A DNA stretch of 63,905 nt, filler included, from Collodictyon triciliatum (lineage: Eukaryota): assembly GCA_043381765.1 (NCBI GenBank). It is 4 parts of 4 records of this genome, joined end to end, with 100 filler letters (N's around TTAATTAATTAA, not from the genome) between each part and the next. Parts side by side here need not be neighbours in the genome. Positions count along the whole stretch, not along the records: positions 10,422 to 33,084 come from JBHJMP010001141.1; 3 more parts are not named here. The stretch is one strand, 5' to 3'. The position numbers and the translations under genes were made by a program. The notes under the pieces are model-generated. The model saw only the letters and a list, made by a program, of their open reading frames with translations, ran no database searches and was not told the DNA's origin. This document shows positions 22,301 through 24,219 of the stretch, piece by piece. The stretch's first letter is position 1. Every line of letters starts with the position of its first letter.

Positions 22301-24219
22301 AATTCCTCTGGTCGAAATGTTCGTGATAATAATTCTAGGCGCAAAGAAGGGACTCTACAGGAGAGACGCGTAGAATACGAAAAGTTGAAAAAGTCTGATT
22401 CTGCAGACACGAGCGAACAAGACATAAAAAAGGATAGCGATGCTTCGGTTAGTCGGCCTTTATCATTTTCCGAAAAATATCTTCAAAAGTACAACTTTGA
22501 AGAAGGAAAGGGCTTGGGGAAGACAAGTCAAGGTATTGTCATCCCGGTCGAAGTCAATAAAGGCGATTCGAGAGTTGGATTAGGATTTTCCAACGCCAAC
22601 ACGATATCTTTGGTAAAATATCAGGCGACATGTATTCGACCAAGTGTTTGGTTGAGGATTCTGTCACCCGTTGCAGAGCTGGAGATATTTCAGCCCGGAA
22701 GGCCGATCCGGATATCTGATTGGAATATTCGGCATTATGAATCCAGTATGGACAGTTGGGTTGACCCACAGCTCGCTAAGCTTTTGGACATAGCGATGAA
22801 AAAAATGACAGAGACTTATCCAGACTACAGAGCAGTTTTGGATGATGCCAAAAAAAGAGCGACTCCGACATACGAGAACTCTGCAATCACGTCAAAGAAT
22901 TCGAAAGACATGCTTTATTTTAATTCCTCTGGTATGATTGACCTCGATGTGAATAGACCATCCACGAATCAGCTGTGTTACATTGACTTTTCTATCTCAC
23001 CATTGAACTACACCGAGTTCATGTCTAAACAACATCCAGACGTAGTTGCTCTGCAAAGGGTATATGAATATATGTTAGATGCTATCTCTAGGACTGCTTA
23101 GCCAAGATTATTGCATCGTGATACGTTGTCTGAGAAATGGAGTTGTAGTTACAACTAATCACTATTTTCTATTCTTTTTTTTTTTCTTACGGTTTTGCAC
23201 CCATTTTTGTGACCATTATACATTTTTTTTTATCACAGAGCCATGAACTCAATCCTCACCCAGAAGGTTCTCTTGATATTCAAAATGCTATCAGAAATGT
23301 GGAATCTGAAGTATGCTTTTATATTTTTTTAAAATAAAATAATAAAAAATAAAACAAACCAATCTTTACAGGTATTCTCTATCTTAAATCGCTGACATAT
23401 AATCACCTCATAGCTCGACAGTTTTCAAAGAATAACTTCCGTCGCTCGTTCCGATGAACTAGAATGCTTCTTGAGTTTCATTAATCCATTCACCGACCCA
23501 GTTGATGAACTTAGGTCCGATTGAAGCATTTTCCTCACTTTTTTTTTTGAATTTCATAATTTTTAATTATTTATACGTACTTTGCAGATTATTTGCATCC
23601 AGGTTCTACTAACACTAATTTTATTTCTCCTTCTTACAGGGAGGTGGACAAAGATTTGATCGAACTTTACATTCGCCAGCTCTGCGTATCACTAAGCCTT
23701 TTAAAAAAAGGAGGAAGTATTGTAATCAGGGTCTCCTCAGCCAGTCATCCTTTCTTCATTTCTGTGTTCTATGTTCTCTTTAAATGCTTTTCTGTCACCA
23801 CTATCACCCACTCAATCTACGACGACCCGACAGAATCTGCTTGCTATGCCATCGCCAAAGGTTGTGTGACTTTCCTTGATCGTTTCATGGACTCAGCTAA
23901 TGGTTTAATCGTTCTTGTAGGATTCCTGAAAAACGCGGAATCAGTAGTTCTGTTTCTCAAGGGGCTGATTGAAAACCGAACTATGGAAGACAAGACGCGC
24001 TTTATTCCGATGCACATACTAAACCATCAGCAGTTCTACGAAAGCATCCACCAAATATTGAACGAAATGTTTTATATACGGACAAATATGATTTACGTTG
24101 TAATGGACTATGAAAACGATAAGAGCTTGCCAGATGCCAACGAAACACCTTCACAGGAAGATTCGAATATCACATGCGGGAGGCAGCTTCATCAAGTTCT
24201 CTCCAAGAAGACAGAATAA
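19312..24219 (+). CDS. CMTR2: Cap2-type mRNA (nucleoside-2'-O)-methyltransferase, CMTR2/FTSJD1-like, with N-terminal RS/RD region, internal G-patch and degenerate second methyltransferase domain
   Basis: HLCEAPGAFICATNHY SAM-binding motif and an intact K-D-K-E tetrad (AWAKLY, TADGS, LIKFF, GNSEVY). The RS exon starting at 19312 joins in frame through exons at ~20146, ~20485 and ~21023 to the large exon starting at ~21266. Confidence 0.9.
20580..20940. repeat. Intronic A-rich simple repeats, poly-A run and 12-nt N gap
   Basis: (ACAAGAA)n/(ACAAAAA)n, Ns at 20762-20773 and a long A run, inside a CMTR2 intron. Confidence 0.9.

Follow-up and report, generated by a model that had tools for sequence, protein, structure and literature searches.

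The cap methyltransferases CMTR1 and CMTR2 are the closest described systems to the protein reported here. In human CMTR2 the catalytic domain needs a second, non-catalytic domain in cis both to bind RNA and to be active, according to the available portions of PMC3113572 and PMC3941023, and in the parts at hand of the 2011, 2014 and 2025 reports (PMC3113572, PMC3941023 and PMC12592727) this second domain is described just as a 'non-catalytic RFM domain', RFM standing for Rossmann-fold methyltransferase. Human CMTR1 carries a G-patch that binds DHX15; CMTR1 activates this helicase and DHX15 restrains the methyltransferase (available parts of PMC6071836). As context, the accessible part of the 2025 paper also reports that human CMTR2 co-purifies with small nuclear ribonucleoprotein (snRNP) proteins (PMC12592727). 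Here we describe a CMTR2-type gene from Collodictyon triciliatum, located on the + strand of a 63,905-nucleotide stretch of DNA (the window, taken at its whole length) and spanning at least 21023-24219. The DNA is eukaryotic, with a base composition of about 29-59% guanine plus cytosine (GC). We think it likely that the gene is this organism's CMTR2, in a long and probably ancestral form, and that its G-patch and dead RFM domain together make up a decayed CMTR1-type module.

The first of the three parts is a catalytic domain. Pfam places FtsJ (PF01728) at residues 34-240 of an open reading frame (ORF) on the large exon, with 72.5 bits against a cut-off of 24.1. The Lys-Asp-Lys-Glu (K-D-K-E) tetrad is complete, being formed in exon numbering by K37 (21374-76), D155 (21728-30), K195 (21848-50) and E232 (21959-61). 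The S-adenosylmethionine (SAM) motif HLCEAPGAF, D155, K195 and E232 are invariant in our catalytic-domain alignment, whose consensus also has the first Lys. Among PDB chains, the profile of the catalytic domain matches EP424R of African swine fever virus (ASFV) with 138 bits and CMTR1 with 105 bits. The closest named relatives of the large-exon protein are all animal CMTR2 proteins (33-40% identity over 49-75% of its length), and the best match among those listed is P0003, at 44% identity. In a tree of 88 rows the domain falls inside the catalytic-domain clade, which has a support of 99 in the Shimodaira-Hasegawa-like approximate likelihood ratio test (SH-aLRT). The window protein bears the marks of the CMTR2 class, an Adrift-type catalytic RFM and a non-catalytic RFM in one chain.

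The linker that follows contains a G-patch (PF01585) at ORF residues 406-440, with 29.8 bits, a cut-off of 22 and an E-value of 5.8e-07. The match lies inside the range, about 22463-22588, in which an earlier note on this DNA had placed a G-patch. Beyond it lies the second RFM. We built a profile from the part after the G-patch in 10 relatives, with the G-patch itself excluded, and with it the spliced window protein gives a match at residues 566-790 (48.5 bits, E 5e-15), while a CMTR1 profile matches that protein at residues 664-780 with 38.2 bits. In Pfam itself FtsJ stays below threshold in the downstream ORF (14.8 bits, E 0.028), so that of the three domains which the earlier note expected of such a scan the first FtsJ and the G-patch exceed their cut-offs and the second FtsJ does not. 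Both by alignment and by direct reading, Arg (23728-23730) stands in place of the second catalytic Lys, within 'GGSIVIRV', and Ala (23839-23841) in place of the catalytic Glu, within 'PTESACYAIAKG', as the same note had read them. By our own reading Asn (23483-23485) occupies the position of the catalytic Asp, on the basis of the 40-residue spacing from Asp to Lys in relatives; hmmalign places it differently. Motif I ('CYIDFSISPLNYTEF') has no GxG. Judged from these positions the domain appears to be left with neither its SAM motif nor any of the four catalytic residues, whose places would now read Tyr (doubtfully), Asn, Arg and Ala. The RFM that is linked to the G-patch is in this protein without an active K-D-K-E, and Pfam finds in the C-terminal ORF neither a guanylyltransferase-like domain nor a WW domain, the marks of long-form CMTR1. 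Because Arg, Ala and, by our reading, Asn replace the catalytic residues and motif I is without GxG, the window protein cannot be counted as a CMTR1, although it holds a CMTR1-like module.

The coding parts and domains of the gene are collected in Table 1. An ORF of 611 codons without a stop (21266-23101, +) is followed by a second of 219 codons (23560-24219, +). We placed contigs from four public RNA-type runs (X1-X4) on 20960-24700. A 569-base contig of run X1 crosses four joints, and the corresponding introns, of 179, 103, 125 and 60 bases, are all GT..AG; the last of these junctions reproduces the '...AIAKG/F...' sequence given in the earlier note. Along these joints the spliced frame stays open for 828 codons, from 21266 to the TAA. 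The contig begins at 23011 and is preceded by a 23-base non-genomic 5' tail, which we take to be the SMART template-switch oligo, and on that ground we regard the contig as complementary DNA (cDNA). Further contigs cover 21506-22294 in pieces and 23994-24240. For the large exon RNA coverage thus consists of the pieces over 21506-22294 together with 23011-23059, and the cDNA joint demonstrates its donor at 23060. Upstream, an exon matches the N-terminal region of relatives ('L..K..LN.TK.KLD.KD..W..HT'), with a GT donor at 21167 and an AG acceptor at 21264-65. We infer the junction 21166/21266 from this homology and the GT..AG pair, outside the coverage of the RNA contigs. The start codon and 5' end of the gene are masked by low-complexity sequence and an N gap upstream. 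The C-terminal helical extension of the last exon is common to the CMTR family; this exon holds no WW domain, and Pfam gives nothing further there. A six-frame scan of the window with our three profiles matched only the CMTR2 gene.

Table 1. Coding exons and domains of the CMTR2-type gene, in positions of the window
Feature	Position	Strand	Content	Basis
Upstream coding exon (partial)	21023..21166	+	N-terminal helix ending ...SKLDKM	Homology and open frame
Large exon, 598 codons, phase 0	21266..23059	+	Active domain, linker, G-patch, start of dead domain	
Catalytic CMTR2 (Adrift)-type RFM domain	21365..21985	+		Pfam FtsJ
G-patch in inter-domain linker	22481..22585	+		PF01585
Dead RFM domain, first part	22871..23059	+	Degenerate Lys-motif region and motif I 'CYIDFSISPLNYTEF'	Alignment of relatives; limits extrapolated from profile
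Exon 3, 24 codons	23239..23310	+	Dead domain	cDNA joints 23059/23239 and 23310/23414; frame checked
Exon 4	23414..23514	+	Strand 4 of dead domain, Asn (23483-85)	cDNA joints 23310/23414 and 23514/23640
Exon 5	23640..23860	+	'GGSIVIRV' and 'PTESACYAIAKG' of dead domain	cDNA joints and alignment
Last exon	23921..24219	+	C-terminal helical extension, tail, TAA (24217-19)	Joint 23860/23921; contig 23994-24240

Some observations on the surroundings and expression of the gene may be added. Long low-complexity tracts occupy 19300-19900 and 20570-20960; one is a coding-looking repeat of Arg, Asp, Glu, Lys and Ser (RS..., DREK/EKRT units), and the other is A-rich over several hundred bases, has a short N run inside it and adjoins the 5' side of the CMTR2 gene. 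The contigs of runs X2-X4, which are freshwater and lake metatranscriptomes, cover parts of 21506-22294 at an identity of at least 99%, and therefore this organism, or one very closely related to it, is transcribing its genes in waters of this kind.

The earlier note had likened the protein to a CMTR2-CMTR1 chimera. The layout is not confined to this genome, since precomputed Pfam annotation shows FtsJ together with a G-patch in 27 of the 120 relatives listed for the large-exon protein, and 8 further G-patch CMTR2-type proteins appeared among the dead-domain profile matches that we scanned with Pfam. A WW domain is also present in 7 of the 120, as well as in P0127 and P0139. The relatives with both domains include green algae (Pedinophyceae, Dunaliella, Trebouxia, Ulva and Pleodorina) and animals, namely the rotifers Rotaria and Didymodactylos and the ctenophore Bolinopsis; the remainder are complete ORFs from protist transcriptomes (EukProt protists). 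The claim that animal CMTR2 is without a G-patch has to be narrowed accordingly, as rotifers and Bolinopsis carry one; the CMTR2 proteins from vertebrates and insects that are named among the 120 relatives listed all lack it. The place of the G-patch is constant, about 200-250 residues past the Glu motif of the first domain and ahead of a conserved 'G..I..V..S.FC' motif. The three-part architecture is widespread and not special to Collodictyon triciliatum, and the gene is unexceptional within its family, if rather degenerate. The G-patch CMTR2 is an under-described form, and probably the ancestral one. In the accessible portions of the CMTR literature, including PMC3113572 with most of its supplementary files, PMC3941023, PMC6071836 and PMC12592727, we found neither a G-patch in CMTR2 orthologues nor a CMTR1-like origin of the dead domain. 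An architecture both common and already described would have spoken against the earlier note; common it is, and those portions of the literature yielded no description, but the combination of FtsJ and G-patch is nonetheless visible in public annotation (Pfam, source names).

Several individual relatives depart from the usual layout. P0132 has a cold-shock domain and P0141 a WW domain N-terminal of the catalytic domain, and the family therefore accretes RNA- and protein-binding modules. P0144, a G-patch CMTR2-type protein, is 1527 residues long. P0135 and P0137, of 618-667 residues, contain only a G-patch and an RFM of the dead-domain type, and in the tree they fall among the dead domains; their gene models may be truncated, or they may be proteins that stand on their own with a G-patch and a dead RFM.

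By alignment and by tree, the dead domain of the window protein is an orthologue of animal CMTR2's non-catalytic domain. The dead domains of relatives and the non-catalytic domain of animal CMTR2 align throughout, and the dead-domain profile recovers the C-terminal domains of vertebrate CMTR2 at 55-95 bits. In the 88-row tree all 25 dead domains, those of the window and of vertebrates included, form one clade with P0135 and P0137 (SH-aLRT 96), so that, of the two groupings the earlier note had named, with CMTR1 or with the C-terminal domains of CMTR2, the latter is what we observe; the branch of the window dead domain is very long (3.95) and its exact place within the clade is unsure.

The same domain resembles CMTR1. 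Against the PDB the dead-domain profile aligns its positions 115-341 to residues 145-395 of human CMTR1's catalytic domain (the crystal construct) with 136 bits and an E-value of 1.7e-38, and the next scores are 34.5 bits for FTSJ1, 34 for FTSJ3 and 30 for EP424R. With the catalytic domains of CMTR2 the profile does not exceed 30-71 bits, and the match lies in the fold's second half. Searched in 1.84 billion representatives, the profile found 5500 proteins at E <= 0.001, and among the best 150 of these many have a single matching stretch. We scanned 59 matches with Pfam: 36 have an N-terminal G-patch and one FtsJ, which is the CMTR1 layout, some with a terminal WW domain, and the rest comprise 12 with FtsJ alone, the 8 G-patch CMTR2-type proteins and 3 others or fragments. 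The scanned set includes CMTR1-type matches of only 580-650 residues with the layout of G-patch and FtsJ. We identified the CMTR1-type proteins by their Pfam layout and by the match of P0224 to human CMTR1, along its full length, with 763 bits. All 39 that we took score higher with the dead-domain profile (135-180 bits) than with the catalytic-domain profile (73-119 bits), in a set that was drawn from dead-domain profile matches and is mildly biased toward the dead domain. A CMTR1 profile in turn gives the dead domain a higher score than the active one of its own chain in 9 out of 32 relatives with two domains, P0126 with its truncated catalytic domain and near-tie being left out of the count; P0018, for example, gives 138 against 112 bits. 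In the other two-domain relatives the dead domain scores lower, as in the window protein (38 against 96).

Fold and spacing point in the same direction. We obtained an AlphaFold2 model for the dead domain of a relative, P0005, rather than for that of the window protein (mean predicted local distance difference test score 71.6, predicted TM-score 0.80). Its best match is CMTR1 4n4a (E 7.6e-19, TM-score 0.72, about 400 columns), followed by EP424R at a TM-score of about 0.6 and FtsJ/Spb1 enzymes at about 0.4. Between the core of the G-patch and the Lys motif lie, at the median, 143 residues in CMTR1-type proteins (n=35, range 131-172) and 141.5 in G-patch CMTR2-type proteins (n=24, range 125-295); in the window protein the distance is about 140. 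As far as domain order can tell, the C-terminal half of G-patch CMTR2 proteins is laid out like a short CMTR1: G-patch, RFM, WW. Among 27 dead domains inspected none keeps the full K-D-K-E, and what remains differs between lineages, with K-N-K-E in P0004 and P0126, Q-D-K-E in the rotifer protein P0022, and a GPGG motif I in P0005 and P0009. Such lineage-specific losses are how piecemeal decay from an active ancestor would be expected to look.

The predicted activity of the protein is the SAM-dependent 2'-O-methylation of the second transcribed nucleotide, converting cap1 to cap2. With its intact K-D-K-E the N-terminal RFM would perform the chemistry, and the dead RFM, by comparison with human CMTR2, is most likely an RNA- or cap-binding partner needed in cis. 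Like that of CMTR1, the G-patch in the linker most likely anchors a DEAH-box helicase of the Prp43/DHX15 type and stimulates it, and such a tether would link cap2 methylation with the unwinding of RNA or with spliceosomal or snRNP particles.

Two alternative readings concern the gene itself. A neighbouring CMTR2-like gene and a separate degenerate methyltransferase gene might have been read as one, as retention of the first downstream intron would bring in an in-frame stop at 23099-23101 and no one RNA contig from runs X1-X4 runs along the whole gene. We find this extremely improbable: the cDNA contig links the end of the large exon (23011-23059) in frame with all four downstream exons, motif I at the start of the dead domain already lies inside the large exon, and relatives from transcriptomes show the same one-chain layout. 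The joints likewise bear out the earlier note in placing the active CMTR2-type domain, the G-patch and the dead RFM in one transcript, although its RNA check succeeds in part, with no contig over 22335-22959 or over 21166/21266. The other reading takes the G-patch as a relic in decay that has ceased to bind a helicase, in a protein that acts like vertebrate CMTR2 with no helicase partner. The consensus in the accessible part of PMC6071836 is hhxxxGaxxGxGhGxxxxG, and the same part reports that CMTR1 L94 and L106 are required for DHX15 binding. The window G-patch has Asn for the first consensus Gly and Tyr at the L94 position; its Pfam score is lowest but one among the G-patches scanned, which range from 25 to 61 bits in relatives and mostly exceed 40; and its flanking region and dead domain are unusually divergent too, the pre-domain sub-profile giving no match. 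Yet the score still exceeds the Pfam cut-off, the rest of the consensus is retained, with the core GxGLGxxxxG and the GLG at its end, as are two of the three key leucines, those that correspond to CMTR1 L106 and L128, and the occurrence of the motif at the same place across very distant lineages argues for selection. A relic is on the unlikely side in our view, but it is the most serious of the alternatives considered here.

For the origin of the protein, the combination of CMTR2 and CMTR1-like parts is partly supported: profile, fold and collinearity back it, and phylogeny does not settle it. A CMTR2-type catalytic domain would have been joined to a CMTR1-like unit (a G-patch, about 140 residues, an RFM and, in some, a terminal WW domain), and the G-patch would have been lost later in vertebrates and insects. 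It is possible that CMTR2 was born by fusion with a complete short CMTR1-type gene, that the CMTR1-type catalytic centre then decayed piecemeal in different lineages, and that the ancestral cap2 enzyme was a G-patch protein working with a helicase of the Prp43/DHX15 type; taken whole, this scenario has in our estimate somewhat less than an even chance. With four bacterial RlmE as outgroup, the 88-row tree recovers the catalytic-domain, dead-domain and CMTR1 clades with SH-aLRT values of 99, 96 and 98, and the split that unites dead domain and CMTR1 with 71. We compared topologies on 49 rows (13 catalytic, 14 dead, 18 CMTR1 and 4 RlmE) and 275 columns under LG+F+G4, leaving out 39 rows, among them the window dead domain, bilaterian dead domains and other long rows. 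Dead domain with CMTR1 is best (log-likelihood (lnL) -21869.2; approximately unbiased (AU) test p 0.68; resampling of estimated log-likelihoods (RELL) 0.61). Catalytic domain with CMTR1 reaches lnL -21871.9, only 2.7 units worse, with AU p 0.40 and RELL 0.36, and this tree would fit a dead domain that is an ancient paralogue, whose branch predates the split between CMTR1 and the catalytic domain of CMTR2, without any fusion to a CMTR1 gene; G-patch and RFM would then be ancestral to the CMTR family, and the catalytic CMTR2 domain would have lost its own G-patch. The stem of the catalytic clade is long (1.17, against 0.38 and 0.42), which makes long-branch effects with the outgroup possible. 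We consider this origin unlikely, given that it is not the best tree, that profile scores bring dead domain and CMTR1 closest, and that the dead and catalytic domains are both about 35 bits from FTSJ1, so that a position closer to the root is not evident for the dead domain.

An internal tandem duplication of CMTR2's catalytic domain, with an independently gained G-patch and a CMTR1 resemblance due to convergence or retained ancestral characters, is disfavoured and seems to us quite improbable. Proteins with two duplicated RFM domains are known elsewhere, as in RsmC (cited in the available part of PMC3113572), and the AU test does not reject catalytic with dead domain at 5% (lnL -21874.0, p 0.087); it nevertheless ranks last among the three topologies, and both RELL (0.033) and expected likelihood weights exclude it. 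The dead-domain profile also scores far lower on CMTR2 catalytic domains than on CMTR1, and the matching distance from G-patch to Lys motif and the terminal WW shared with CMTR1 would have to be coincidences. The ancestral fusion of CMTR2 and CMTR1 proposed in the earlier note gains from profile, fold and G-patch spacing and is left undecided by the rooted tree, which rejects neither alternative. Beside this, and beside the divergent residues and low score of the G-patch and the mild bias of the CMTR1-type set, other findings weigh against a decayed CMTR1-type module with a working G-patch. The greater CMTR1 similarity of the dead domain could stem from a fast-evolving catalytic domain and not from kinship. 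A sub-profile of the stretch between G-patch and Lys motif matches just 1 of the 39 CMTR1-type proteins, and does not match the window protein either. Searched against the PDB with phmmer, the window G-patch (52 residues) aligns to human CMTR1 residues 89-130 with 23.4 bits and to other G-patch proteins with 23.6 bits, and CMTR1 is not singled out. The RNA contigs over 20960-24700 span neither 20960-21459 nor 22335-22959, inside which lies the G-patch; this stretch is backed by the unbroken 598-codon exon and not by RNA contigs. Helicase recruitment by the window G-patch is extrapolated solely from CMTR1, and the functional role of any G-patch CMTR2, whether activity, binding or localisation, is a prediction by analogy.

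The non-catalytic domain of CMTR2 is essential; the G-patch form of CMTR2 gives a concrete hypothesis for its origin, and leads to the prediction that in algae, rotifers, ctenophores and many protists cap2 methylation has a helicase as partner. Green algae and choanoflagellates are reported to be without CMTR1 in the available part of PMC3113572. If the fusion is true, the lineages so reported may have no cap ribose methyltransferase other than the fused protein.

Elsewhere in the window, two long ORFs at 37735-44674 (+) encode a multidomain acetyl-CoA carboxylase of the homomeric type, with biotin carboxylase, BT, biotinyl, central and carboxyl-transferase domains; this stretch has 46-59% GC against 29-43% in the surrounding DNA. 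A 435-codon ORF at 27109-28416 (-) contains leucine-rich repeats (LRR_8, LRR_4). An Rfam scan of the window gave no match.

Set beside the known systems, the window protein shares with human and other vertebrate CMTR2 (FTSJD1, hMTr2) and with insect CMTr2 (Adrift) an N-terminal catalytic RFM with K-D-K-E and the presence of both domains in one chain. The linker G-patch, which it has in common with the 27 relatives, is absent from the named vertebrate and insect proteins. The 'G..I..V..S.FC' motif before the second domain is found in the CMTR2 family (52 matches among 121 family proteins), whereas in the window protein it is not detectable with the sub-profile. ASFV EP424R, a cap 2'-O-methyltransferase (PDB 9IQ4, 9W69), is the best solved relative of the catalytic domain, but unlike the window protein it consists of one domain and has neither a G-patch nor a dead domain. 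With human CMTR1 (FTSJD2, hMTr1; PDB 4N48, 8P4E) the window protein shares the order of G-patch and RFM and the spacing between them. In contrast to CMTR1 its CMTR1-like domain is, from its residues, catalytically dead and without the SAM motif, the guanylyltransferase-like domain and the WW domain are absent by Pfam, and an additional active CMTR2-type domain lies upstream. Closest of all are the G-patch CMTR2-like proteins of green algae, rotifers, Bolinopsis and EukProt protists, which have the same three-part architecture and the same G-patch position. Those of rotifers and some protists add a C-terminal WW domain that the window protein is without, and P0005, P0009, P0004, P0126 and P0022 keep more CMTR1-like motifs than it does.

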